Of a DNA stretch of 34,541 nucleotides, positions 4,133 to 33,983 are shown one piece after another; the first letter of the stretch is position 1; each line of letters starts with the position of its first letter. The position numbers were made by a program, and so were the translations under genes. Under the pieces are notes generated by a model. The model was not told the origin of the DNA. It ran no database searches and was given only the letters and a program-made list of their open reading frames with translations. Source of the stretch: a virus (lineage: Duplodnaviria > Caudoviricetes); the IMG/VR virus record IMGVR_UViG_3300020045_005555, positions 1 to 34,541 of that record; one strand, given 5' to 3'.

Positions 4133-4969
4133 ATGTCAACATTGAAACAACCAGTAAATACTAAGAGTCCTCACATTCACGTTGTCTACAAGCATACCGC
4201 GCCTAATGGAAAGTCTTATATCGGGATAACTAATCATTACACAAGACGTAGTTCTCAACATAGAAATACTGATGCTTGCTCGATATTTCATAGAGCTATT
4301 GATAAATACGGTTGGGAAAATTTCAAGCACGAATTTCTAGCTGTAGGATTGACGTTAGAGGCTGCTAACCATTTCGAGGAATTTTATATTAGGACTCATG
4401 ATACATTGTCGCCGAATGGGTATAACTTAAAGACTGGAGGTGATGTAGGTAAAAATAATCCTATTACAAATGAAAAAATATCAGAAGCTAATAAAGGTAG
4501 GATTGTATCTGAAGAAACCAGAATTAAGATTTCTGAGTCTAATATGGGAAAGACTCACACTCCTGAATCAAGAGCTAAGATGTCAAAATCACAAAAGGGA
4601 AGGGTAATATCGCCAGAATCGTCCGCAAAAAGAATAGCTACTGTAACTGGACGCAAGAACTCAGAGTCCACTAAATATAAAATTGGGTTTGCAAATAAAA
4701 AACCTCACTTCAAATTGGAGTATGCTTCTTATTGTAATAACATAATATCAATGCCAGAAAACACTATTTTTAAAACTAATGACTTAAAAATAGCATTGGA
4801 TAATAATTGTAGTGGCGCAGGGATATGCTCAAGAATACTCACTGGTGAATTTCCAAATGCGTATAAAGGTAAAAATAATGTTAACCTAATCCCAATCACC
4901 GACGTAATCTCATACTACGAAAAGTACAAAGAAATTTATTTAGTTGACAGTGACGTAGAATTGCCATAG
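4133..4969 (+). CDS. Free-standing GIY-YIG homing endonuclease with NUMOD3 repeats
   Basis: VVYKHT...SYIGIT, R..QH, EEFYI, GYNLKTGG; repeated SEETRIKISES / TPESRAKMSKSQKG. Confidence 0.92.
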   Translation: MSTLKQPVNTKSPHIHVVYKHTAPNGKSYIGITNHYTRRSSQHRNTDACSIFHRAIDKYGWENFKHEFLAVGLTLEAANHFEEFYIRTHDTLSPNGYNLKTGGDVGKNNPITNEKISEANKGRIVSEETRIKISESNMGKTHTPESRAKMSKSQKGRVISPESSAKRIATVTGRKNSESTKYKIGFANKKPHFKLEYASYCNNIISMPENTIFKTNDLKIALDNNCSGAGICSRILTGEFPNAYKGKNNVNLIPITDVISYYEKYKEIYLVDSDVELP

Positions 4970-5912: not shown

Positions 5913-6668
5913 ATGATAAACCTACACAATCAAGACTGCCTAACATTCATGCCGACACTGCCAGATAACAGCATTGATTTAATCTTATGTGACTTACCTT
6001 ATTCTCAAACTGCACTTTCATGGGATAATGTGATTCCATTTGATAAATTGTGGGAACAATACAGCCGAATTGTCAAACCAACAGGAACTATTCTATTATT
6101 CGGGCAAGAACCTTTCTCATCCCTCGTGAGAATGTCTAACCTTAAAAACTACAAGTATGACTATTACTGGGAGAAGGAACGCGCTACTAATGTGATGCAA
6201 GTTAAGCGTCGCGCTGGTAAAGTAATTGAAACTGTTTCTGTATTTCATAATTCACCTAAAGGTGGACAAACATATAATCCTCAAATGATAACCTATACAG
6301 GCAAACCTCGCTCGAATGGCAACGGCGGTACTTTGGGTGAATTAGTAGCTGGTAAGAATAAACAAGGTAAAGGTTATCAAGACAACGGTTTACGTTACCC
6401 TACACAAGTATTAAGGTTTAAGCGCGATTCACTGAAATGTAGTTTACATCCTACACAGAAGCCCGTATTATTATTGGAACATTTGCTATTATCACATTCT
6501 AATGAGGGGGATGTTGTTTTAGATAACTGTTTTGGAAGTGGCAGCGCAGCGATAGCCTCTGTGAACACAGCTAGGAGGTTTATCGGATGCGAATTAGATA
6601 GCAATTATTTCGCAATTGCACAAGAAAGAATTAACAAGCATATTGGGGAAGTAAATGAACGATTTTAA
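5913..6668 (+). CDS. DNA methyltransferase, N6-adenine/N4-cytosine (beta class)
   Basis: DLILCDLPY catalytic motif, HPTQKP, VLDNCFGSGS SAM-binding motif, FIGCELD. Confidence 0.93.
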   Translation: MINLHNQDCLTFMPTLPDNSIDLILCDLPYSQTALSWDNVIPFDKLWEQYSRIVKPTGTILLFGQEPFSSLVRMSNLKNYKYDYYWEKERATNVMQVKRRAGKVIETVSVFHNSPKGGQTYNPQMITYTGKPRSNGNGGTLGELVAGKNKQGKGYQDNGLRYPTQVLRFKRDSLKCSLHPTQKPVLLLEHLLLSHSNEGDVVLDNCFGSGSAAIASVNTARRFIGCELDSNYFAIAQERINKHIGEVNERF

Positions 6669-6936
6669 CGTCATTGATATTTTACATTCAAAACTAACTG
6701 CTTATTTAAAAAATACATTCGTTAAGGACGAATTCGTTTTAAAATATAAATCTTTACCAATACATAGAATTGAGATTGATAATTGTTTGTATTCGCCGTT
6801 AGTAATATTTCCTAGAGAAGGTCATTGGCATATTTATGTCTACGAAAATGAAATTTCAGATTTAGAAATCGAAGTTTTTAATAAGATTGGTGGATTACAT
6901 ATTGGAACTTTAAAATTTAACACAGGTATAAAATGA
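6655..6936 (+). CDS. Hypothetical protein
   Basis: 93-aa ORF overlapping both neighbours, GGGGA RBS. Confidence 0.6.
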   Translation: MNDFNVIDILHSKLTAYLKNTFVKDEFVLKYKSLPIHRIEIDNCLYSPLVIFPREGHWHIYVYENEISDLEIEVFNKIGGLHIGTLKFNTGIK

Positions 6937-7991
6937 AAACAATAAAGACGCAATCAGTCAAATACGCTGGTAGCAAATTAAAATTGCTACCAACCATACT
7001 CAGCTTGATACCCGCTGGTACCCAAACCGTACTAGACGGTTTCTCAGGGTCAACGCGCGTATCGCAATCCTTAGCTATTGCGGGTTATAATGTGACAAGT
7101 AATGACATCTCAGAGTTATCGTATGTATTAGGTAAATGCTACTTAATGTCACCACAGTTAGACTACCAAGAAGTCATCGACTATCTAAACAACCTAACGC
7201 CAGTAGAAGGCTGGTTTACTGAAAACTATGGTGGTTATGTTACTTCTAAGTCATCAGTCCAACAAGATGGCTTAAAACGCATCTGGCAACGTCACAATAC
7301 TATGCGTTTAGACGCTATTCGTGCAGAAATAGATAATCTACCTTCAGAGTATAAGCATGTCGCTTTAACCAGCCTAATTTTAGCTATGGACGCAGTTGAT
7401 TCGTCGTTAGGGCATCAGGTCAGTTATTTGCGAGAATGGTCTAGTAGGAGCTATAAAGACGCTATTTTGCGCGTACCTGATATTATTTATACCGATAAAC
7501 CGCATTCTGTGATTAAAGGTGATGTGTTTGACATCACTACGTATTACGATTGTGTCTACCTAGATAGCCCATATGGCAGCGCGAATACCAAGATGCCGTC
7601 CTCTCGCATACGCTACAATAGTTATTACCACCTGTGGAAAACAGTGATACTAAACGACAAACCTGAGTTATTCGGTAAGGCTAAACGTCGAGTAGACTCG
7701 CGCGATAACTTTGATTGTCCATTTGAGGACTACCGTGAAGATTATGCGGTTTCGGCTATGCGTAAGTTAGTGTCTGAAGTAAATGCCGATTATGTGATAT
7801 TGTCGTATAATAATAATGGTATCATTACGTTAGATACTATGCTGGACATCATGCTAAGCAACGGTAAGTTATTACAGACTATTGTCGTTGACTACAAGCG
7901 CAATGTGATGGCTAGTATGTCTTGGACGAAAGAATGGATAAATCAAAATGGCAAGAATCAGGAATTCTTATTTTTGATTGATAAGCGTTGA
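6933..7991 (+). CDS. DNA adenine methyltransferase (D12/alpha class)
   Basis: KYAGSKLKLL, LDGFSGS..VS, SND, YLDSPY (DPPY variant), ILSYNN.G, EFLF. Confidence 0.9.
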   Translation: MKTIKTQSVKYAGSKLKLLPTILSLIPAGTQTVLDGFSGSTRVSQSLAIAGYNVTSNDISELSYVLGKCYLMSPQLDYQEVIDYLNNLTPVEGWFTENYGGYVTSKSSVQQDGLKRIWQRHNTMRLDAIRAEIDNLPSEYKHVALTSLILAMDAVDSSLGHQVSYLREWSSRSYKDAILRVPDIIYTDKPHSVIKGDVFDITTYYDCVYLDSPYGSANTKMPSSRIRYNSYYHLWKTVILNDKPELFGKAKRRVDSRDNFDCPFEDYREDYAVSAMRKLVSEVNADYVILSYNNNGIITLDTMLDIMLSNGKLLQTIVVDYKRNVMASMSWTKEWINQNGKNQEFLFLIDKR

Positions 7992-8026
7992 TAGATTATT
8001 AAGTGATATATTTTAAAAATAAACTA

Positions 8027-8056
8027 TTGACAAACGTAGTACAAAACAATTATCCT
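8027..8056 (+). promoter_or_regulatory. sigma70-type promoter
   Basis: TTGACA-18 nt-TATCCT; spacer contains AACGTAGTAC. Confidence 0.6.
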
Positions 8057-8099
8057 ATACCTGCCGTAACAAATTACTTAAATTACTTGGAGAATAACA

Positions 8100-8402
8100 A
8101 TGTCTACAGAAGTCAAACCGACAACAAAAGAAGAAATCGAAGCGCAAGAAGTCTTTATGACTAAGATTGTCCCGATTCTTAAAACGATTATGAAAGAACC
8201 CATTAAGGCGTATGTCAAAACAGAGTCACTACACATTTGCGTACACTCACATAACAAAGATGAATTGTACAATTTAAGCAAGTTATTAAGAGATACTAAG
8301 TTGCCTTATACGACTAAGGAAGGTGTTAAAGTTTATGCTGGTAGCATTAGCAAATTTTGCGTAGTATCGTCAATTGAACGCTTACTGGCGTTAGGAGAAT
8401 AA
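8100..8402 (+). CDS. Hypothetical protein
   Basis: CTTGGAG RBS, 100 aa. Confidence 0.75.
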   Translation: MSTEVKPTTKEEIEAQEVFMTKIVPILKTIMKEPIKAYVKTESLHICVHSHNKDELYNLSKLLRDTKLPYTTKEGVKVYAGSISKFCVVSSIERLLALGE

Positions 8403-8403
8403 A

Positions 8404-8520
8404 ATGTTTTCACTAGAAGAGGTAATCGCATTACGCAAGCAAGGTTTTACGCACTACAAGACTACTTGCAATGGCACACGGTATTATCGTACTTGGTCAG
8501 TTGGTAGAAGTACGTTGTAA
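8404..8520 (+). CDS. Small hypothetical protein (38 aa)
   Basis: TAGGAG RBS; translated by hand MFSLEEVIALRKQGFTHY... Confidence 0.55.
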   Translation: MFSLEEVIALRKQGFTHYKTTCNGTRYYRTWSVGRSTL

Positions 8521-8540
8521 TTTAATTAGGGGAATATAAA

Positions 8541-9038
8541 ATGAGTCATGTTAAAAACAATAGCGGTAACAACGAATGGTATACACCTTCTGAATTTGTT
8601 GAATCTGCACGATTTGTTATGGGTGGTATCAATCTCGATCCAGCTTCTAGCATTATTGCCAATCAAACTGTGAAAGCTGATAGATTTTATTCGATTGAAG
8701 ACGATGGGTTATCGCAAGATTGGACGACTGAAGCACTATTTATTAACCCGCCTTACGGTAGAGATTTGATTGGTAAGTTTATTGATAAACTAATTTCTTC
8801 TAATGTGAAACAAGCTATTGTGATGGTGAATAATGCAACTGAAACACAATGGGGAAGTAAGTTATTGTTGCATTCTAAAGCTGTTTGCTTCATTACTAAA
8901 CGAGTTAAATTTATTACTCCAGAAGGTATACCGTTAAAATCACCATTACAAGGTCAGATGGTTTGTTATATTGGTAATAATCCGATAGGCTTTAAAGAAG
9001 AATTTTCGCAGTATGGTGTGGTTTTAATAAACAACTAA
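8541..9038 (+). CDS. Phage Dam-family DNA N6-adenine methyltransferase
   Basis: NEWYTP, LDPASS, DDGL...W, FINPPYG, NNATET.W, RVKF. Confidence 0.9.
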   Translation: MSHVKNNSGNNEWYTPSEFVESARFVMGGINLDPASSIIANQTVKADRFYSIEDDGLSQDWTTEALFINPPYGRDLIGKFIDKLISSNVKQAIVMVNNATETQWGSKLLLHSKAVCFITKRVKFITPEGIPLKSPLQGQMVCYIGNNPIGFKEEFSQYGVVLINN

Positions 9039-9048
9039 GGTGTATAAA

Positions 9049-9420
9049 ATGACAAACTTTAACGAATTAAAAGGCAAAACCATAATCTCAGCAGAAGGTC
9101 TAGCTGAAGGTTCAGACAAAGTAATTTTTGAATGCTCTGATGGTAGCAAATACAAAATGTTACATTATCAAAGCTGTTGTGAATCGGTTGATATTTACGA
9201 CATCTGCGGTGACATTGATGATATTCTAAACAGTGAAATTTTCGTAGCCGAAGAAGTTGATGGCGAAACACCAGGTGATTTTAGTGAATCTGATTATGAA
9301 TCTTACACATGGACATTTTACAAATTGGATAGTATCAAAGGCGGCATCACAATTCGATGGTTAGGTGAATCAAATGGATATTATTCAGAATCAGTGTACT
9401 TTGAGAAAATTAACACTTGA
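9049..9420 (+). CDS. Conserved phage protein
   Basis: HYQSCCESVDI.DI.GD, YTWTFYKL, IRWLGESNGYYSE motif typical of a widespread phage family. Confidence 0.8.
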   Translation: MTNFNELKGKTIISAEGLAEGSDKVIFECSDGSKYKMLHYQSCCESVDIYDICGDIDDILNSEIFVAEEVDGETPGDFSESDYESYTWTFYKLDSIKGGITIRWLGESNGYYSESVYFEKINT

Positions 9421-9445
9421 CAAACTTTAAATCCAGTGATAAAGT
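9417..9445 (+). promoter_or_regulatory. sigma70-type promoter
   Basis: TTGACA-17 nt-TAAAGT with TG extension. Confidence 0.65.
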
Positions 9446-9475
9446 ATATGTTTATTTTAACCAACAGATACTATC

Positions 9476-9604
9476 ATGGACGAAAAACAAGCTATTATCC
9501 GACGCGATCAACCCGAAGATTTCCCAGAGATTGATGATTATGATGACATTCATGACGAATTAGATTTACTCGATATTTTTGATGATGACGACGCGCCTTT
9601 TTAA
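9476..9604 (+). CDS. 42-aa highly acidic peptide ending FDDDDAPF
   Basis: Translated by hand MDEKQAIIRRDQPEDFPEIDDYDDIHDELDLLDIFDDDDAPF; first ORF after a promoter; weak RBS. Confidence 0.6.
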   Translation: MDEKQAIIRRDQPEDFPEIDDYDDIHDELDLLDIFDDDDAPF

Positions 9605-9617
9605 ATAAGAGATTTAT

Positions 9618-9701
9618 ATGATTGAAAGTTTATTAACAGCCGCAGTATTATCAACTGTGGTTACGGGATGGTTGTATTTTATTTTAAGAGGTATAGTATG
9701 A
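9618..9701 (+). CDS. 27-aa single-TM peptide
   Basis: MIESLLTAAVLSTVVTGWLYFILRGIV; ATGA overlap with next ORF. Confidence 0.5.
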   Translation: MIESLLTAAVLSTVVTGWLYFILRGIV

Positions 9702-9841
9702 AAAATGGTCTTAGAGATTTGCCCAACGTAGAGCTAACAGCTTATTATTTGTGGGAGTCCGGTAATTCGGATGATGCTATTACTAATTGGTTGGATGCGG
9801 AGAAAAGTATTTTAGTAAATAAACTTGTTGACGAAACGTAG
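9698..9841 (+). CDS. DUF2934-like small protein
   Basis: AYYLWESG.....NWLDAE pattern; GAGG RBS. Confidence 0.65.
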   Translation: MKNGLRDLPNVELTAYYLWESGNSDDAITNWLDAEKSILVNKLVDET

Positions 9842-9856
9842 TACGTTGGCTATTCT
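9828..9856 (+). promoter_or_regulatory. sigma70-type promoter with palindromic spacer
   Basis: TTGACG-17 nt-TATTCT; AACGTA-G-TACGTT at 9835-9847. Confidence 0.65.
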
Positions 9857-9910
9857 ATTCGCAGGTTCACACAGTACCTATTTCAAACTGTGAATTCTTG
9901 GAGAATTAAA

Positions 9911-10900
9911 ATGTCGTTATTAGCACAAATCACAACAGCAGCAACGGAAAACGGTATCAAAGCAGTCATCTACGGTGCAACTGGTATGGGAAAAACAACA
10001 ATCGCCTGTTCTGCTCCACAGCCTTTACTTATCCCAACTGAAGGTGGTTTTACGAATGTCGATAAAACTAAAGTAGCAGTGCTACCAGAAGTCATTAGAG
10101 ATTTCGATTCATTGGTTAATGTGATTAAGGAATTAGTCACTTGTTACTCGAAAGAAAAAGGTGTAATTCTATTACCTGATGGTAGAGAAATCAAATCTAT
10201 CATTCTAGACAGTATCACAGCGACTGAGCGATTGATACACGACAAGATTATCCGTAGCGATAAAAACTGGACACCTGGTAATCCTAAAAGTGTTACGATG
10301 GAGAGTGCCGGTAATGGTTACTCAAGTGCATATAATGCGGCATCAGAAAAGATGTCTGAATTGTTACGCAGATTAGAATTCTTCTCTAACAGAGGTATTA
10401 ACGTAATTATCATTGCACATTCTATCAGCTACCTTGAGAAAGACATTGCGATGGGTGAAGAGTTTACTTACACAGACTGCTCCTTATACTCACCTAGAAA
10501 TGGTAAATTTGCTGGAGCGAGAGATTTATTACGGCAATTTGTGGATTTAACAGGTTATATGCACAGTCCATTTAACACGTTTAAAGTAGGTGATAGCAAG
10601 AACGCTATTCGTGTAGGTAATGCAATCGACGGTGTTAAATATGTGATGGGTATCAATAAAAACCCTCGTTATGAAGCTAAGAATCGTTATGACTTAGAGA
10701 ATATCACGCCTATTGTGATTCCGAAGTCTGTCGGGTGGAATGCGTTAGCTGTGCAGATTAAGAAGTATTCAGGTAAGGATTTTATTAACGGTAGCTATCC
10801 GTTGGGCGAAGAAAGCGTGGTAAATGTTGAAATTCATGAAACGATTACTGTGGTCGAAGATATTATTCCAGTAGACGCAACACCTGAATTTACGGATTGA
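9911..10900 (+). CDS. Sak4-like / AAA_24 phage ATPase (single-strand annealing)
   Basis: IYGATGMGKTT, PTEGG, IILDSIT, IIIAHS, AKNRY; next to Gp157 and SSB. Confidence 0.85.
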   Translation: MSLLAQITTAATENGIKAVIYGATGMGKTTIACSAPQPLLIPTEGGFTNVDKTKVAVLPEVIRDFDSLVNVIKELVTCYSKEKGVILLPDGREIKSIILDSITATERLIHDKIIRSDKNWTPGNPKSVTMESAGNGYSSAYNAASEKMSELLRRLEFFSNRGINVIIIAHSISYLEKDIAMGEEFTYTDCSLYSPRNGKFAGARDLLRQFVDLTGYMHSPFNTFKVGDSKNAIRVGNAIDGVKYVMGINKNPRYEAKNRYDLENITPIVIPKSVGWNALAVQIKKYSGKDFINGSYPLGEESVVNVEIHETITVVEDIIPVDATPEFTD

Positions 10901-10909
10901 ATAACCTTT

Positions 10910-10934
10910 AGCTGGGAGTAATTTCCCAGCTTTT
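10910..10934 (+). terminator. Rho-independent terminator
   Basis: AGCTGGGA-GTAATT-TCCCAGCT-TTT. Confidence 0.7.
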
Positions 10935-10954
10935 AAAACTTTGGGAGAATAACC

Positions 10955-11122
10955 ATGACAAAACAAGAACTAATCAAAACACTACAGACATTAGATTGTC
11001 CTGACGATACAACTATCGAATTGTGGAACTCTGGTTATTATGGTGATTCATTCACCAGTTTAAACGATGTTGAACTCGTTAGATATGAAGATGATTCAAT
11101 CGTGATTCAGTTATCTTATTAG
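10955..11122 (+). CDS. Small hypothetical protein (55 aa)
   Basis: TTGGGAG RBS; MTKQELIKTLQTLDCPDD... Confidence 0.7.
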   Translation: MTKQELIKTLQTLDCPDDTTIELWNSGYYGDSFTSLNDVELVRYEDDSIVIQLSY

Positions 11123-11131
11123 GAGCAATCT

Positions 11132-11644
11132 ATGACACGCCCACTATACGAAATATCACAAGAATACCGTCACGCATTTGATGACATAACTAATTTATTA
11201 GAAGATGTTGACATTAGCAATAAAGACGATATAATTAGTAACAGCTTGGTACACATCGAGCAAGAATTTGATAATAAGGCTTTGAATGTAGCACGATACG
11301 TTGCTAATTTAGAGCATGAGCTTCACGGAGTTAAAGAAGCCGCCAAACGGTTGCAAGTACGCGCTAAAACAACCGAGAATAAGATTGACAGATTGCGCGA
11401 GTATCTTTTAACTGAGATGCGAAACTTAGATAAAAAAAGCATTAAATCGGATGAAATAGTGTTGACACTAAGAAAGAATCCTGATAAAGTGCTTATAACA
11501 GATGAAGTTTCACTACCTGAGAAGTTTAAATTTACAGTTAGCGAAATAAAGATTGACAAGAAGCTAATAGCTGATACAATCAAGTCTGGTAAATCAGTTG
11601 AAGGTGCTGAATTAACATCTTCGCAACGCTTGGAAATTAAGTAG
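11132..11644 (+). CDS. Siphovirus Gp157 family protein
   Basis: LYEIS..Y, K..N.A.Y..NL, EAAKRL..R, LREYL..M, LRKNP, IDKK.I...IKSG..VEGAEL....LEIK. Confidence 0.88.
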   Translation: MTRPLYEISQEYRHAFDDITNLLEDVDISNKDDIISNSLVHIEQEFDNKALNVARYVANLEHELHGVKEAAKRLQVRAKTTENKIDRLREYLLTEMRNLDKKSIKSDEIVLTLRKNPDKVLITDEVSLPEKFKFTVSEIKIDKKLIADTIKSGKSVEGAELTSSQRLEIK

Positions 11645-11722
11645 CTCTGTAAAGAGTAGAATAAACAAATCTGCTAGGTGATATTACTTAGCAGAAACTA
11701 ACTAAATTAAAGGAAACAAATC

Positions 11723-12265
11723 ATGTCATTTTTAAATAAAGATTTTTCAAAAGTAGAAGAAGCAGGTAGCTCAAACCGTTTAAACTTAGGTTGGTTTAAA
11801 GTTGTTGTTACTGGTATTGATGATAAAAAAACAAAAGCTGGTAACGAATACCCTGAGTTTTCATTTGAAGGTAACGAAGGTGTTTACAAATCTAAAGTAA
11901 TGACTACTCGTATGTTACTGTGCAACGTGAATCATCCTACATCAGAGCCAGCTCGAAACATTGCGAATGGTCAATTGAAAGCTATTTTAGGTGCATTAAA
12001 CGTACTGGATGCTAATGGTATCTGTACTTTGTCATCGTACAATGACGCTAAAGGTCGTCCGTTCTGGTTGCGTACTGATGTTGATGCTAATGGATACATC
12101 GTAGCAGCAGAGTTTAAACCATTAACATTCGTACCACCTTACGTTGGCTCTGCTGAAGTACAACCACCACCTCCTGTTAGACATACTGATAACCAACCTA
12201 CACCAGTATCGGTGTCACAGGTAGCTGGTGCAACAGCAGATTATGCTGACGACATTCCTTTTTAA
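11723..12265 (+). CDS. Single-stranded DNA-binding protein (DUF669-like)
   Basis: GWFKVVV...KKTKAGNEY; Pro/Gln-rich linker; C-terminal ADDIPF; in Sak4 module. Confidence 0.75.
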   Translation: MSFLNKDFSKVEEAGSSNRLNLGWFKVVVTGIDDKKTKAGNEYPEFSFEGNEGVYKSKVMTTRMLLCNVNHPTSEPARNIANGQLKAILGALNVLDANGICTLSSYNDAKGRPFWLRTDVDANGYIVAAEFKPLTFVPPYVGSAEVQPPPPVRHTDNQPTPVSVSQVAGATADYADDIPF

Positions 12266-24035: not shown

Positions 24036-24244
24036 CACAGCAAGAATATCAACAAGGTCGAGATACTTTAATTGACACCCTTAATTGGTCAGAAGATTCA
24101 ATTTTAGATTTTGCAGGAGAGGTTTTGCGGAAGACTATTTTAGAAACGAGTTGTACTGAATTAGTAGACGCTATTGCAAAAGTAAGAGTTGATTTTAATG
24201 CAACAATTGACGAGATTATTAACGAAGTGGAAGGGGTTAAGTGA
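24032..24244 (+). CDS. Helical hypothetical protein (paralogue 3)
   Basis: CTGGAG RBS, ATGA overlap. Confidence 0.7.
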   Translation: MTQQEYQQGRDTLIDTLNWSEDSILDFAGEVLRKTILETSCTELVDAIAKVRVDFNATIDEIINEVEGVK

Positions 24245-26460
24245 TGCAAGTAGTGAAACGCGATGGTACGTTGGAAGGTTTAGATGTAAATAAAGTCCAC
24301 AAGTGTATTTCTTGGGCTTGCGAGGGCTTAGAAAATGTTTCTGTAGCAGATGTCGAAACAAACGCCCATGTGCAATTCTTTGATGGTATTACGACAGAAC
24401 AGATTCACAGTAGAATGATTCAATCTGCTGCTGAGTTGATCTCTATAGAATCTCCGGACTATGAGTATGTGGCTGCTAGATTGTTGTTACAGCAGATTGT
24501 GAAGGAGTGTGGGCAAGATTTGCGATTTGGAGATTACATACAAGCCGCTGTCTTGTGCGGAAAAGTGTCAAATGACTTAGTTGACCATTACGACTACTCA
24601 CAATTAAACTCAGCAATCGACAATTCACGCAACCTAAAATTCAAATATCTAGGGCTACAAACGATTTACGATAGGTACCTTATTCGTGATAATGACAATA
24701 AAGTAATTGAATCACCACAGCATTTCTTTATGCGAGTGGCTTGCGGAATCTGCCTAAATGAACCTAAGGCTATCGCTACAGAAAAGGTAATTGAGTTATA
24801 CGAATTGTTTTCTAATTTTGAGTATTTACATTCAACACCTACATTGTTTAACTCTGGTACATTACATCCACAAATGTCGTCGTGTTTCCTTTTAACTGTG
24901 GACGATTCTACAATTGACCACGACACCGAATCAGAATTTGGTAAAGGTATCATGGCATTGATGGCTGAGGCTGCAGTATTATCAAAGTATGCTGGTGGTA
25001 TCGGCACAGACTTTACACGAATTAGACCTGTTGGCAGTTTGATTAAAGGTACTAATGGTGTTTCAAGTGGTGTAGTACCCGCATTAAAAATTTACAATGA
25101 CACTGCGTTATTTTTTAACCAGGGAGGGAAAAGACCGGGAAGTTTCGCATCATATCTTGAACCATGGCACGGTGACATCGAGGCTTATGTTGATATTAAA
25201 AAACCAACTGGTGACGCTAGATTGCGCGCGATGGACATTTTCCCATATTTGTGGATGAATGATTTATTCTTAGAGCGAGTTAAATCTAAAGCAATGTGGT
25301 CATTATTTGATGTATCTAAATTCCCTGAATTACATGACTTATATGGCGTTGCGTTTAAAGCTAGATATGAAGAATTAGAATCTCAAGGGCTTTACATTAG
25401 AAAGATTAGTGCGATGGATTTATGGGTAAAATCTGTAACATCATTGGTTGAAACAGGCGCACCGATGATTGCATTTAAGGATGAAGCCAATAGACGCAAT
25501 CCTCAACGTCATGTTGGGACGATTAAGTCGAGTAATCTTTGTAGTGAGATATTTGAAGTCACCTCAGACGAAGAAACAGCAGTTTGCAACTTATCATCTT
25601 TAAACTTAGCCAGATTGGAATTCGATGATATTAAGCGTGTGGTGCCGATTGCAATTAGAGCTTTGGATAATGTAATCGATTCCAATTTCTACCCAAGCGA
25701 TAAATCAAAAGTATCAAATTTAAGACATCGACCTATCGGTCTAGGTGTTATGGGTTGGGCTGAGTATCTAATCAAGCATGACATCGACTTTGAATCACAA
25801 CACCATCTCGATGAATGTGATAGAGTATGGTCTGAAATTAGCTATTGGGCTATTCACACCTCATGTGAATTATCAAAAGAAAAAGGTAGGTATTCGACAT
25901 TTGAAGGGTCGGATTGGTCAAAAGGTATTTTACCTTATATGACACATAAAGATTATGATAATGACACCCCTAAATGGATTCAATTGAGTAAAGATGTTAT
26001 GCAATATGGTGTTAGAAACAGCCTAATGTTAGCACTTGCTCCAACGGCAAGTATCAGTTGTATTCTTGGTACAACACCGTCGATTGAAGTTGCATATAAG
26101 TTAGCATACCTTAAAGATAACTTATCAGGTAAATTCATGGTAATTGACCCTACGCTACGATATAACAAACCCGCTATCACTAAGACAGCGTTTGAAATTG
26201 ACCAAGTATGGGCGATTAAAGCTGCTGCGGTAAGACAGAAATGGATTGACCAAGGGCAGTCTCTTAATCTGTATAAAGCTATCGGAACTCGTGGTAGTAC
26301 GATTAGCAACTGGTTTATGTTAGCTAATGAATTAGGCTTAAAATCAACTTACTACTTGAAAAACCAAGATGAATCTGTTAAAGTTGATGCTATGGTGGAT
26401 ATTACGGAAGAAGTTAAATTCTGTTCAATTGAAAACAGTGAATGTGAAAGCTGCCAATAG
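24244..26460 (+). CDS. nrdA: Class I ribonucleotide reductase alpha subunit
   Basis: ATP cone VVKRDG, STPTLFNSG, SSCF, SNLCSEI, VCNL, APTASIS, KSTYY, C-terminal CESCQ. Confidence 0.97.
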   Translation: MQVVKRDGTLEGLDVNKVHKCISWACEGLENVSVADVETNAHVQFFDGITTEQIHSRMIQSAAELISIESPDYEYVAARLLLQQIVKECGQDLRFGDYIQAAVLCGKVSNDLVDHYDYSQLNSAIDNSRNLKFKYLGLQTIYDRYLIRDNDNKVIESPQHFFMRVACGICLNEPKAIATEKVIELYELFSNFEYLHSTPTLFNSGTLHPQMSSCFLLTVDDSTIDHDTESEFGKGIMALMAEAAVLSKYAGGIGTDFTRIRPVGSLIKGTNGVSSGVVPALKIYNDTALFFNQGGKRPGSFASYLEPWHGDIEAYVDIKKPTGDARLRAMDIFPYLWMNDLFLERVKSKAMWSLFDVSKFPELHDLYGVAFKARYEELESQGLYIRKISAMDLWVKSVTSLVETGAPMIAFKDEANRRNPQRHVGTIKSSNLCSEIFEVTSDEETAVCNLSSLNLARLEFDDIKRVVPIAIRALDNVIDSNFYPSDKSKVSNLRHRPIGLGVMGWAEYLIKHDIDFESQHHLDECDRVWSEISYWAIHTSCELSKEKGRYSTFEGSDWSKGILPYMTHKDYDNDTPKWIQLSKDVMQYGVRNSLMLALAPTASISCILGTTPSIEVAYKLAYLKDNLSGKFMVIDPTLRYNKPAITKTAFEIDQVWAIKAAAVRQKWIDQGQSLNLYKAIGTRGSTISNWFMLANELGLKSTYYLKNQDESVKVDAMVDITEEVKFCSIENSECESCQ

Positions 26461-26470
26461 GTAATCTAAC

Positions 26471-26502
26471 GAAGGGTCGGTTAAATGACCCTTCATTCTT
26501 TA
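26471..26502 (+). terminator. Hairpin between nrdA and nrdB (terminator or stabiliser)
   Basis: GAAGGGTC-GGTTAAAT-GACCCTTC. Confidence 0.5.
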
Positions 26503-26519
26503 AAACTTAGGATGTAATC

Positions 26520-27506
26520 ATGATTGACATTTCAAAAAGAAAACTAATCGAAGGCGAAACTAATAATTTAATGGCTCTTCATCCATTAAAGCACGCTTGG
26601 GCTAAAGAAGTATTTGATAAGATGCGAACTAATAGTTGGCATGAATCAGAAGTAGATTTATCGGGGGATGCAAAGCAATATCAGACTGGTGTGTTGAATG
26701 AAGGTAATTTATTCTGTTATACCAAAGCATTAGCGTTCCTTAGTAATTTAGATGGAATTCAATTTAATAGTCTCACAACTAACATTGGAAGATGGATTAC
26801 ATCACCTGAAGTACAAATGTGTATCTCACGCCAAGTGTTTGAAGAAGCCCAGCACGTTGTGTCATACGACGCAATGATTTCAAGTATTGGGTTTGACCCA
26901 GAATCAATTTATTATGCGTTTGAGACCGATTCTGTGTTATCTGATAAAAATGAATTTATCACACGTTCGTCACAATTATTAGGTAAAGGGTTTACACCAC
27001 AAAACTTCGCTAAAGCCATCGTGGCGAATGTTGCTCTTGAAGGTATTTATTTCTTCAGTGGATTCTTAAACTTTTTCAATTTAGAAAGACAAGGTTTAAT
27101 GCGAGGGTCTGCTAAAATGATTAGGTTTATTTTGAGAGATGAAATTACACACATGAATCTGTTTGTGAATATGTGGAAGACGCTTAAATCAGAGCGTCCT
27201 GAATTGTTTACTCCAGAGTTATTATCAGATTGTCGAGAGATTATTAAATTGGCTACTGAGCATGAAATAGCTTGGGGTAAATATATCATTTCACATGGTG
27301 TGCTAGGATTAACTGATTCTATAAGCGAATCGTTTATTAAAGACCTTGCTAATAAACGCACACTGTTGTTAGAATTAGGCGAAATTCCTTATAAAGGTAA
27401 TGTTAATCTAGCCCCATGGTTTGATAAAGCGTCAAGTGGGGAAGTTGAGGAAAACTTCTTTGAAAGTAAAGTCAGTACCTATTCTGTAGGGTCATTAGAA
27501 TGGTAA
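26520..27506 (+). CDS. nrdB: Ribonucleotide reductase beta subunit (class Ia type)
   Basis: W..SEVDL..D, LDGIQ, EEAQHVVSY, LEGIYFFSGF, RDEITH, NFFE.KV..Y. Confidence 0.96.
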   Translation: MIDISKRKLIEGETNNLMALHPLKHAWAKEVFDKMRTNSWHESEVDLSGDAKQYQTGVLNEGNLFCYTKALAFLSNLDGIQFNSLTTNIGRWITSPEVQMCISRQVFEEAQHVVSYDAMISSIGFDPESIYYAFETDSVLSDKNEFITRSSQLLGKGFTPQNFAKAIVANVALEGIYFFSGFLNFFNLERQGLMRGSAKMIRFILRDEITHMNLFVNMWKTLKSERPELFTPELLSDCREIIKLATEHEIAWGKYIISHGVLGLTDSISESFIKDLANKRTLLLELGEIPYKGNVNLAPWFDKASSGEVEENFFESKVSTYSVGSLEW

Positions 27507-32961: not shown

Positions 32962-33099
32962 ATGAGTAATGGTGGTAAAGGTGACAAACAACGACCAGTT
33001 GATAGAAAAAAATTCAACGAAAATTGGGATAGAATTTTTGGTAAGAAGGTTGTAAAAAAAACTACTCCTGAGCAGGAAATATCATGCAAAATGCAATAA
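32962..33099 (+). CDS. Small conserved phage protein
   Basis: GGKGDKQRPVD...F.ENWDRIFG motif; AGGGGA RBS. Confidence 0.7.
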   Translation: MSNGGKGDKQRPVDRKKFNENWDRIFGKKVVKKTTPEQEISCKMQ

Positions 33100-33983
33100 A
33101 CTTCTGCTCTAATGCAATTAACAAAGATTTGCCTTATTTCTACATTAAAGACAAACGAATCTACGCATATAACGGTGCGTTCACGATGTCTGCACCGTTA
33201 GACTTACCTGATTGTTCACCTAAAGCAGAACAACTCGTAGGGGCGTTTAAAAACCAAGTATCGGCTAATGTGACTAAGACTCCAACAGGAAAGTTGTCAA
33301 TTAAAAACGGTAAATTGAAAGCGTTAGTTAATTGCAGTGAAACTTTCCTACTTAATACTGATGTGCCAGAAGGCGAAGTTGTCGAACTAAATTGTGATTT
33401 ATTATTGATATTGAAGCGACTACTACCATTCACAATTCAGTCGGATTTTAAATGGATGGATGGGGTAGTATTGTCAAATAACTACGCTTACGCGGCAAAT
33501 AACCCAGTTATCATTCGACATTTTACAGGGTTAGATGTTGATATGTGGATTAGCACAGCTACAATTAAAGCGTTGCTGAAGGTAAAAGAACCTATCGAAT
33601 CTATCACGGTTAGTAAAAATACAATCATTTTTAACTTTACTAATGACAAGTGGTTATCACAAAATAATTACTCAGGTGCGATTCCTGACTTAGCTAAGAT
33701 GTTGAATGATGTAACCTGTGATAATCTTATACCAGAAGAATTCTTTACAGGTATTGATTACTTAAAACCATTTGTTGATGAAAACTTTTCAAGAGTGATT
33801 ATTTCTGATGGAAAATTATCGACTGTTGACGGCACAGATTACGAATTACCTGTTACTGGCAGTGGCTCGTTCAACATTACTAATTTGTCATTATTGCGTG
33901 ATGTAGCGACTAATATCGATTTCACAAAAAATAACTTTACAGGTGTTGATATTCAGGGTAAGATTCATGGGTATCGGGATTAA
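33084..33983 (+). CDS. Phage DNA polymerase beta-clamp-like protein
   Basis: F.IK..RI.AYNG...MSAP, L.IK.GK, LKRLLPF....W..GV.L....AYA.NN pattern; size and beta-rich composition. Confidence 0.65.
   Translation: MQNAINFCSNAINKDLPYFYIKDKRIYAYNGAFTMSAPLDLPDCSPKAEQLVGAFKNQVSANVTKTPTGKLSIKNGKLKALVNCSETFLLNTDVPEGEVVELNCDLLLILKRLLPFTIQSDFKWMDGVVLSNNYAYAANNPVIIRHFTGLDVDMWISTATIKALLKVKEPIESITVSKNTIIFNFTNDKWLSQNNYSGAIPDLAKMLNDVTCDNLIPEEFFTGIDYLKPFVDENFSRVIISDGKLSTVDGTDYELPVTGSGSFNITNLSLLRDVATNIDFTKNNFTGVDIQGKIHGYRD

Follow-up and report, generated by a model that had tools for sequence, protein, structure and literature searches.

The locus and its genes

The window analysed here, the whole stretch of 34,541 bases of a phage contig (35.8% G+C) that is rated as linear and as a fragment of about 17% completeness, carries genes for helicases, several DNA methyltransferases, Sak4, a Gam-like and an SSB-like protein, thymidylate synthase and ribonucleotide reductase. 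Upstream of Sak4, the Gam-like gene and SSB lies a cassette of three microgenes headed by an acidic microprotein gene (Table 1), which is kept in all three contigs compared, the window and two relatives (L001 and L002). The microprotein contains 14 Asp and 4 Glu among its 42 residues, has a net charge of about -15 and ends with IFDDDDAPF directly before the stop; the 18 acidic residues and this end agree with the initial annotation. The same annotation noted that the ORF is missing from its gene track, but the absence is confined to that track: JGI/IMG calls exactly this protein on the 34,541-base contig. Three relatives of the microprotein carry the name "hypothetical protein" in JGI/IMG. A 151-base DNA contig of sequencing run X1 spans positions 9472-9622 with three differences, the one listed being synonymous, and among the sequencing runs listed no RNA dataset carries the microprotein sequence.

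The label "SSB-like" for the last gene of the recombination module is supported by its predicted structure (pLDDT 53.5), for which the sole match under an E value of 0.001 is PrgE (E 6.8e-4), an OB-fold ssDNA-binding protein. This SSB ends with DDIPF in all five aligned copies, the window copy reading YADDIPF, in agreement with the ADDIPF end noted earlier. As a side observation, the Sak4, Gp157/Gam-like and DUF669-like SSB genes (9911-12265) form a module that resembles the anti-CRISPR repair pair of Healer (PMC13687109).

Table 1. Features of the cassette and of the recombination module downstream (window coordinates)
Feature	Position	Strand	Remarks
Extended -10 sigma70-type promoter-like site, TTGACA-17-TGA-TAAAGT	9417-9445	+	-35 box overlaps stop codon of the upstream DUF7448 gene
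Predicted 5' leader of ~24 nt, AU-rich, unstructured, without Shine-Dalgarno	9452-9475	+	Start site inferred from the -10 box
Acidic microprotein gene	9476-9604	+	42 aa; homologues at L001 4543-4665, L002 4172-4294, in P0003, P0004 and the end of P0002; dN/dS in text
Only predicted helix (residues 25-31)	9548-9568	+	Low confidence, weakly amphipathic; hydrophobic moment at most 0.49
C-terminal tip IFDD[DE]DAPF-stop, SSB-Ct-like	9575-9604	+	Invariant except D/E in 6/6 variants
27-aa hydrophobic micro-ORF, likely one membrane helix	9618-9701	+	Second cassette gene; 78% (L001) and 59% (L002) identity
47-aa ORF	9698-9841	+	Third cassette gene; L002 homologue weakly DUF2934-like (E 0.0045, below the Pfam cut-off), no match for the window copy
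Sak4-like annealase (AAA_24), candidate partner	9911-10900	+	phrog_124 E 5e-32; PF13479; own promoter-like site 9828-9856
Gam-like / Sipho_Gp157 protein of the recombination module	11132-11644	+	Family matches
Phage SSB-like protein (OB-fold, DUF669-like)	11723-12265	+	Weak PHROG SSB match, E 5.7e-5; ends DDIPF

Conservation of the gene

The two relatives, whose Sak4 proteins are 91% (L001) and 75% (L002) identical to that of the window, were retrieved by a Sak4 search of viral contigs, and each encodes a 40-residue homologue of the microprotein (85% and 88% identity by alignment, respectively). Against the window copy, dN/dS is 0.077 and 0.054 (Nei-Gojobori, these two relatives); in the third pairwise comparison, between the relatives themselves, synonymous sites are saturated. 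Variable columns fall mostly at third codon positions (23/32), the last 12 codons show 3-6 synonymous versus 0-1 non-synonymous differences per pair, and the copies include an in-frame indel of 6 nt, with start and stop kept in all variants. In BLASTP comparisons with the related sequence G002, the microprotein, at 83%, is more strongly conserved than Sak4 (75%), Gam (76%), SSB (71%) and helicase (71%), whereas in G001 it falls behind Sak4 (81% versus 90%).

Judged from these substitution patterns, 9476-9604 is a genuine gene, translated and under purifying selection. That it is a spurious or untranslated ORF with no protein product is scarcely credible: although the lack of a Shine-Dalgarno site in all three contigs would fit such an explanation, the low dN/dS, the third-position bias, the in-frame indel and the preserved start and stop largely refute it.

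The family is narrow in the sequence collections searched. A profile search of 1.84 billion representatives gave two matches and no longer natural relative, and a cluster look-up added three members, which brings the family to six natural variants. All six end with D-[DE]-D-A-P-F, that is, with a free C-terminal Phe, Pro at -2, Ala at -3 and three acids at -4 to -6. Conservation is not confined to this end, since five variants agree in 31 of the 42 columns, and these are distributed over the whole length. The initial annotation had named translation and conservation of the C terminus beforehand among the points on which its proposal could fail; a dN/dS of 0.05-0.08 speaks for the former, and the terminal Pro-Phe is invariant in 6/6 variants. 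Scans of metagenome contigs gave 204 pattern stretches, none confirmed as a homologue, and 0 matches to the tail pattern, and a second tail-pattern scan of viral contigs recovered just the two known contigs. A word-index search with the microprotein returned no candidate, the Atlas, which includes its sequence, gave no usable match, and neither Pfam nor PHROG contains a matching family. In a blastn search of positions 9000-11000 against phage records, only the upstream DUF7448 gene was matched (28 records). Two further loci, L005 and L006, were discarded as chance matches inside a 1020-aa ORF.

Expression signals

The promoter-like site in front of the gene combines TTGACA and a TG-extended TAAAGT across 17 nt and agrees with the consensus at 10/12 positions. 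A promoter scan of the window alone is at chance level (22 sites versus 17.8 +/- 4.1 in shuffles); the TTGACA..TGn-TAnnnT layout precedes the microprotein gene in 3/3 contigs, with a different upstream gene in L001. The -10 region TGATAAAGT is common to this promoter and to that of the SSB gene (11462-11490), and the pattern also precedes the SSB gene in both the window and G002, the total being 6 forward, 0 reverse and 0 in the control. The promoter and the first position in the transcription unit, both asserted in the initial annotation, are thus present and the layout is conserved.

The same annotation had pointed to a weak ribosome binding site, and no Shine-Dalgarno site is found in any of the three contigs. 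For the three copies of the gene, the predicted duplex with the anti-Shine-Dalgarno sequence amounts to -1.1, -0.2 and +2.0 kcal/mol, compared to about -5 to -9 for most other genes of the window, most of which possess GGAG-type sites. The start region is essentially unfolded RNA, albeit not more so than shuffles. The microprotein is probably translated at a low level from its leader of ~24 nt. The window scan placed no terminator-like site close to the gene and no promoter-like site over its last codons, which vary synonymously. Neither the start nor the end of the gene shows a conserved RNA structure. Only L001 contains, at 4652-4684, a 38-base insertion after the stop that can pair with the last microprotein codons; it is absent in the other two contigs and lies within the range of shuffles.

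The tip compared with SSB-Ct and other acidic tails

The paradigm for a C-terminal docking tip is the E. coli SSB hexapeptide DDDIPF, a ligand of more than 14 proteins, in whose pockets the carboxylate of the terminal Phe and the Pro are gripped and a basic rim receives the acids (PMC5872125, PMC3152348). When bound to RecO, the tail shows order at Pro176 and Phe177 alone, with Ile175 poorly ordered, and binding (Kd 0.06-0.34 uM) is abolished by deletion of the Phe, by Pro176Ser or by loss of all three Asp (PMC3152348). The microprotein tip retains all the residues that RecO needs and differs at the least ordered one, with Ala for Ile. More generally, it has in common with the bacterial SSB-Ct, as described in these two papers (PMC5872125, PMC3152348), a free terminal Phe, Pro at -2, a run of acids, an upstream Phe and an acidic chain, which in the microprotein is only predicted to be flexible. 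It is nevertheless not an exact copy of the SSB tail: Ala replaces Ile at -3 and one extra acid precedes it, giving four acids after the upstream Phe where E. coli SSB has three. The large aliphatic residue at -3 of proteobacterial SSBs is lacking in all six variants. Among 29 complete gammaproteobacterial tips, 28 end with IPF, one with VPF and none with APF; these tips come from the 30 best-scoring loci of a 300-genome sample, a selection by score that favours canonical SSBs.

Whereas bacterial SSB is a tetramer built on an OB-fold, the microprotein has neither, is encoded by a separate gene with its own promoter, and its SSB-like binding is putative. With 42 residues, no Pfam or PHROG match and no strands in its model, it lacks the OB-fold ssDNA-binding domain that defines an SSB. 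The AlphaFold2 prediction, built from a five-row alignment, reaches a pLDDT of 62.6 and a pTM of 0.22 with a single helix, which fits a mostly unfolded chain whose tip would sit on a disordered acidic linker.

Ends of this kind are rare by chance. Two of the 190 ORFs in the window end with [DE][DE]xPF, namely the microprotein and the SSB, compared to 0.005 per window expected from 200 base shuffles, which do not keep codon bias; the same two are the only acidic-xPF ends in G002. The exact form of the tip was also sought in larger collections with the back-translated pattern [DE]-D-[DE]-D-A-P-F followed by TRR. Viral contigs (45 of 64 parts) contain at least 119 such loci, each followed by a true stop. 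In a set of 79 of the encoded proteins, 22 have an SSB PHROG as their best match, 6 are DnaB-like or primase-helicases, 5 belong to a family of unnamed function and 46 match no PHROG, two of the latter being the microprotein's own relatives; the set consists of the first 80 loci less one 12-aa ORF, with 39 short-flank loci left out and rows not de-duplicated. Prokaryotic genomes (30 of 64 parts) yielded at least 120 loci, 113 with a stop and 7 with TGG. Here, 75 proteins (the first 80 loci, minus 2 that were too short and 3 with TGG, 40 loci being left out) comprise 38 with DnaB_C, 6 XseB, 3 of the topoisomerase III type (Toprim_Crpt) and 2 FtsK, and none of the 75 matches the SSB family PF00436 at E 1e-6; one locus among the 40 unscanned, L244, resembles an SSB end by eye. 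By record title, 37 of the 38 DnaB matches belong to Bacteroidota or close kin. From these scans, acidic-APF emerges as a genuine C-terminal motif that clusters on proteins of DNA metabolism and is used by phage SSBs; it differs from the SSB tip of the likely host as well as from that of the phage's own SSB (DDIPF).

The phage SSB tails compared include gp32-like proteins (phrog_1192/224), phrog_9002, gp2.5-like proteins (phrog_112), HK620 SSB (NDYPPF) and Bas52_0087 (FDDDIPF). Several phage SSB tails end exactly with acidic-APF, and the closest to the microprotein are those of gp32-like SSBs, F-D-D-L-F..DDDDAPF, in which F-D-D-L-F resembles the LLDIF of the microprotein. However, all these SSBs carry an ssDNA-binding domain, the microprotein carries none, and outside the last ~13 residues nothing aligns. 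Identical ends [DE]D[DE]DAPF likewise occur in DnaB of Bacteroidota and relatives, and also in XseB and topoisomerase III, where they terminate large enzymes. Taken at the level of sequence, the microprotein is a narrowly distributed phage protein that carries the Ala type of an SSB-style docking tip; it is not an SSB, and its decoy role is putative. In the literature searched, mostly non-subscription papers, no stand-alone SSB-tip protein devoid of an OB-fold was found.

Beyond the microprotein, DnaB of Bacteroidota and relatives (L128-L205) commonly has an SSB-tip-like acidic-APF end, and the three topoisomerase III-type proteins with such an end belong to Pandoraea. Moreover, a viral family of 116-121 aa with a Lys/Ala-rich linker ends with EDEDAPF (L007, L008, L010, L012, L021, L026, L043, L056 and L076). 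It has no PHROG match, two members are also without a Pfam match, and its neighbours in the Atlas are unnamed viral clusters; it is another candidate carrier of an SSB-style tip.

A putative decoy for host SSB-tip pockets

The reading that we prefer, and put forward tentatively, is that the microprotein is a DNA-free decoy plugging the pockets in which host proteins receive the SSB tip. The product of this conserved gene, which follows a host-type promoter, is a 42-residue acidic protein without DNA-binding domain, predicted to be mostly unfolded and presumably made early together with the phage SSB because both genes follow the same extended -10 promoter type. The acidic-Ala-Pro-Phe end would then fill the pockets where host enzymes dock on the SSB tip, and competition would exclude host nucleases, helicases or mediators of the ExoI, RecQ, RecO, PriA or chi types from ssDNA during the work of the Sak4/Gam/SSB module, the substrates protected being recombination and replication intermediates. 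The conserved N-terminal 30 residues may add affinity or select one partner. Evidence of translation and selection, the invariant tip, the APF ends of phage SSBs, the presence of the residues essential for RecO, the promoter type in common with the SSB gene and the context of methyltransferase, Gam and Sak4 genes all argue for such a decoy. Ala at -3, which is unlike host-type SSBs (0/29) and the phage's own SSB (IPF), weakens it, as does conservation of the whole length, which appears to exceed the need of a bare tip. In addition, the missing Shine-Dalgarno site suggests a low output, ill-suited to a monomer that has to compete with an abundant tetrameric SSB. The earlier proposal of a decoy that titrates host SSB partners can thus be retained as far as the conserved gene, the invariant Pro-Phe and the acidic-APF ends of phage SSBs (22/79) are concerned; it is called into question by the absence of Ala from the 29 host-type tips and by the prevalence of DnaB among bacterial APF proteins.

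Its second version, in which the decoy titrates defence sensors that recognise phage SSB, finds little support: what DRT4 reportedly requires is the folded domain of SSB together with ssDNA, the role ascribed to the tail being tentative (10.64898/2026.10.21.760695, 10.64898/2026.10.27.754916). Occupying ExoI might even be harmful. In one model, the phage SSB tip triggers the DRT10 defence by displacing SbcB (10.64898/2026.04.29.721553); by analogy, blockade of ExoI could trigger a DRT10-type defence instead of helping the phage.

Through the SSB tip, bacteria recruit more than a dozen proteins of replication and repair, and antibiotics aimed at its pockets have been proposed (PMC5872125). If the decoy reading is true, a stand-alone tip peptide shaped by selection would represent a new route by which phages redirect the DNA metabolism of the host, and a ready-made lead for inhibitors of these pockets. 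A broader version, which is conceivable though rather unlikely, places the microprotein in a phage class of OB-less free copies of the SSB tip, in which the Ala variant and the acidic helix would strip host ssDNA enzymes of the ExoI and RecQ types while sparing Sak4-SSB, as a natural inhibitor of the SSB interactome. The occurrence of Ala in the peptide and Ile in the SSB of the same phage would then offer a direct test of whether the -3 residue sets partner choice.

Other explanations of the tip and of the acidic chain

The tip may instead be directed at the phage's own Sak4, or at another phage partner of the phage SSB, and, as a competitor of the cognate SSB tail or a substitute for it, tune when or how strongly the phage recombines. 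Sak4, which the initial annotation missed, is by analogy the nearer candidate partner: in HK620, Sak4 depends on the six C-terminal residues (NDYPPF) of its cognate SSB both to load on ssDNA covered by SSB and to be stimulated, and it tolerates a residue other than Ile at -3 (PMC5928155). The peptide is encoded 0.3-0.7 kb upstream of Sak4 in 3/3 contigs (300 bases in the window), and in a Pseudomonas phage the damage done by CRISPR cuts is repaired by a pair of DUF669-SSB and Sak4 (PMC13687109). In Healer this repair module consists of the DUF669 SSB Gp63 and the Sak4-like Gp64, with prophage members ending in DDDIPF (PMC13687109), and the HK620 sak4-ssb genes (PMC5928155) have the same make-up as the neighbouring Sak4 and DUF669-like SSB genes of the window. 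A compatibility signal for annealases has been assigned to the last seven SSB residues in a paper whose main text does not contain "APF" (PMC13490951). However, unlike the Healer and HK620 genes, the microprotein gene stands outside the module behind its own promoter, and the accessible text of those two papers (PMC13687109, PMC5928155) makes no mention of a stand-alone tip peptide. Sak4 itself has its own promoter-like site, a 102-aa gene intervenes in L002, and early inhibition of the phage's own recombinase would bring no obvious benefit. HK620 Sak4 and SSB moreover show no interaction in solution without ssDNA (PMC5928155). A complex prediction with the microprotein (five-row alignment) and Sak4 residues 1-295 (30-row alignment) scored 0.00 in two runs whose controls were not folded and carries no weight for or against the pair. 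On balance Sak4 is an unlikely target. A different set of partners is suggested by the bacterial acidic-APF proteins (38/75 DnaB_C, 6 XseB, 3 Toprim_Crpt, 2 FtsK) and by the 6/79 viral ones that are DnaB-like or primase-helicases: the tip may mimic the tail of a replicative helicase or of another non-SSB protein and bind the polymerase, primase or nuclease subunit that receives such tails. Bacteroidota, the source of 37/38 DnaB matches with their kin, are not known to use the canonical TTGACA promoters and GGAG Shine-Dalgarno sites that this phage uses, and such a mimic is very doubtful here. DnaB-type tails may also dock in SSB-type pockets, in which case this explanation would merge with the decoy reading.

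The remaining explanations shift the emphasis from the tip to the rest of the chain. If the microprotein were an acidic nucleic-acid mimic or a generic polyanion that blocks a DNA-binding defence or repair enzyme of the host, its Pro-Phe end would be incidental or secondary. Ocr, Arn and lambda-Gam are proteins of this style, and T7 Ocr is small, very acidic and encoded by the first gene behind a host-type promoter. The microprotein shares size, acidity and position with Ocr; its net charge is about -14 to -15 in 5/5 variants tested, it is conserved over its whole length, and its gene, also the first behind a host-type promoter, lies near several methyltransferases. It differs in having no predicted folded scaffold (pLDDT 62.6, pTM 0.22, one 7-residue helix, 5-row alignment), no sequence likeness to Ocr and no Pfam or PHROG match, and in its terminal Pro-Phe, whose invariance DNA mimics are not known to need. 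The anti-restriction peptide suggested initially agrees with the strong negative charge, although no folded scaffold is predicted; we regard it as quite unlikely. It is distinctly improbable, too, that the functional site is internal (PEDFPE, YDDI..EL.LLDIF), an acidic-hydrophobic helix that would bind RNA polymerase, the sliding clamp or a protease, possibly with the two downstream microproteins. The 31/42 invariant columns over the whole length, the predicted helix at residues 25-31 and the cassette kept in 3/3 contigs would be accounted for in this way. However, LLDIF resembles clamp-binding motifs without the key Gln of the consensus, a literature search on this likeness returned nothing, and the terminal Pro-Phe is kept as strictly as the core.

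Neighbourhood, host and a chimeric contig

In each of the three contigs the cassette is preceded by a variable cluster of several DNA methyltransferase genes (window 5913-9038; L001 1528-4483; L002 720-3659; L246 9548-10666), which suggests strong restriction pressure. The ribonucleotide reductase module has apparently been replaced in G002, where the large subunit (L248 10871-14258) is 25% identical to that of the window (24241-27506) and is preceded by a likely small-subunit gene. At 33084-33983 the window encodes a 299-aa protein that matches phrog_947, "DNA polymerase processivity factor" (E 6.7e-18), and is a possible phage sliding clamp; it has no Pfam match, and for want of a PDB sequence match and of a counterpart in the two partial relatives it was set aside as a partner of the microprotein.

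Best protein matches of low identity weakly suggest a host among the Proteobacteria, mostly Gammaproteobacteria: Sak4 is 33% identical to proteins of Sphingomonas and Pseudomonas phages, the primase-helicase about 30% to those of Klebsiella and related phages, NrdA 46% to Pseudomonas phages, DUF2158 47% to Thiothrix and the HTH gene of a relative 64% to Alteromonas. A search of 400 gammaproteobacterial genomes gave weak DNA matches of 30-49 bases in three, and the host was not found among these. A check for repeats placed two of the matches outside any CRISPR array; the third falls on SSB tail codons.

One member of the family, P0002, is a protein of 241 aa in which the N-terminal 190 residues of Sak4 are followed by the peptide leader and the peptide. 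It was rejected as a natural Sak4-peptide fusion, as the gene order in the genomes is the reverse and the single 1051-base JGI contig that encodes it (a cluster of 1) is likely chimeric. The junction is in frame, about 26 bases before the peptide ATG and within 1-2 bases of the position at which the -10 box of G002 predicts transcription to start. If this contig derives from RNA, the junction would mark the 5' end of a transcript.
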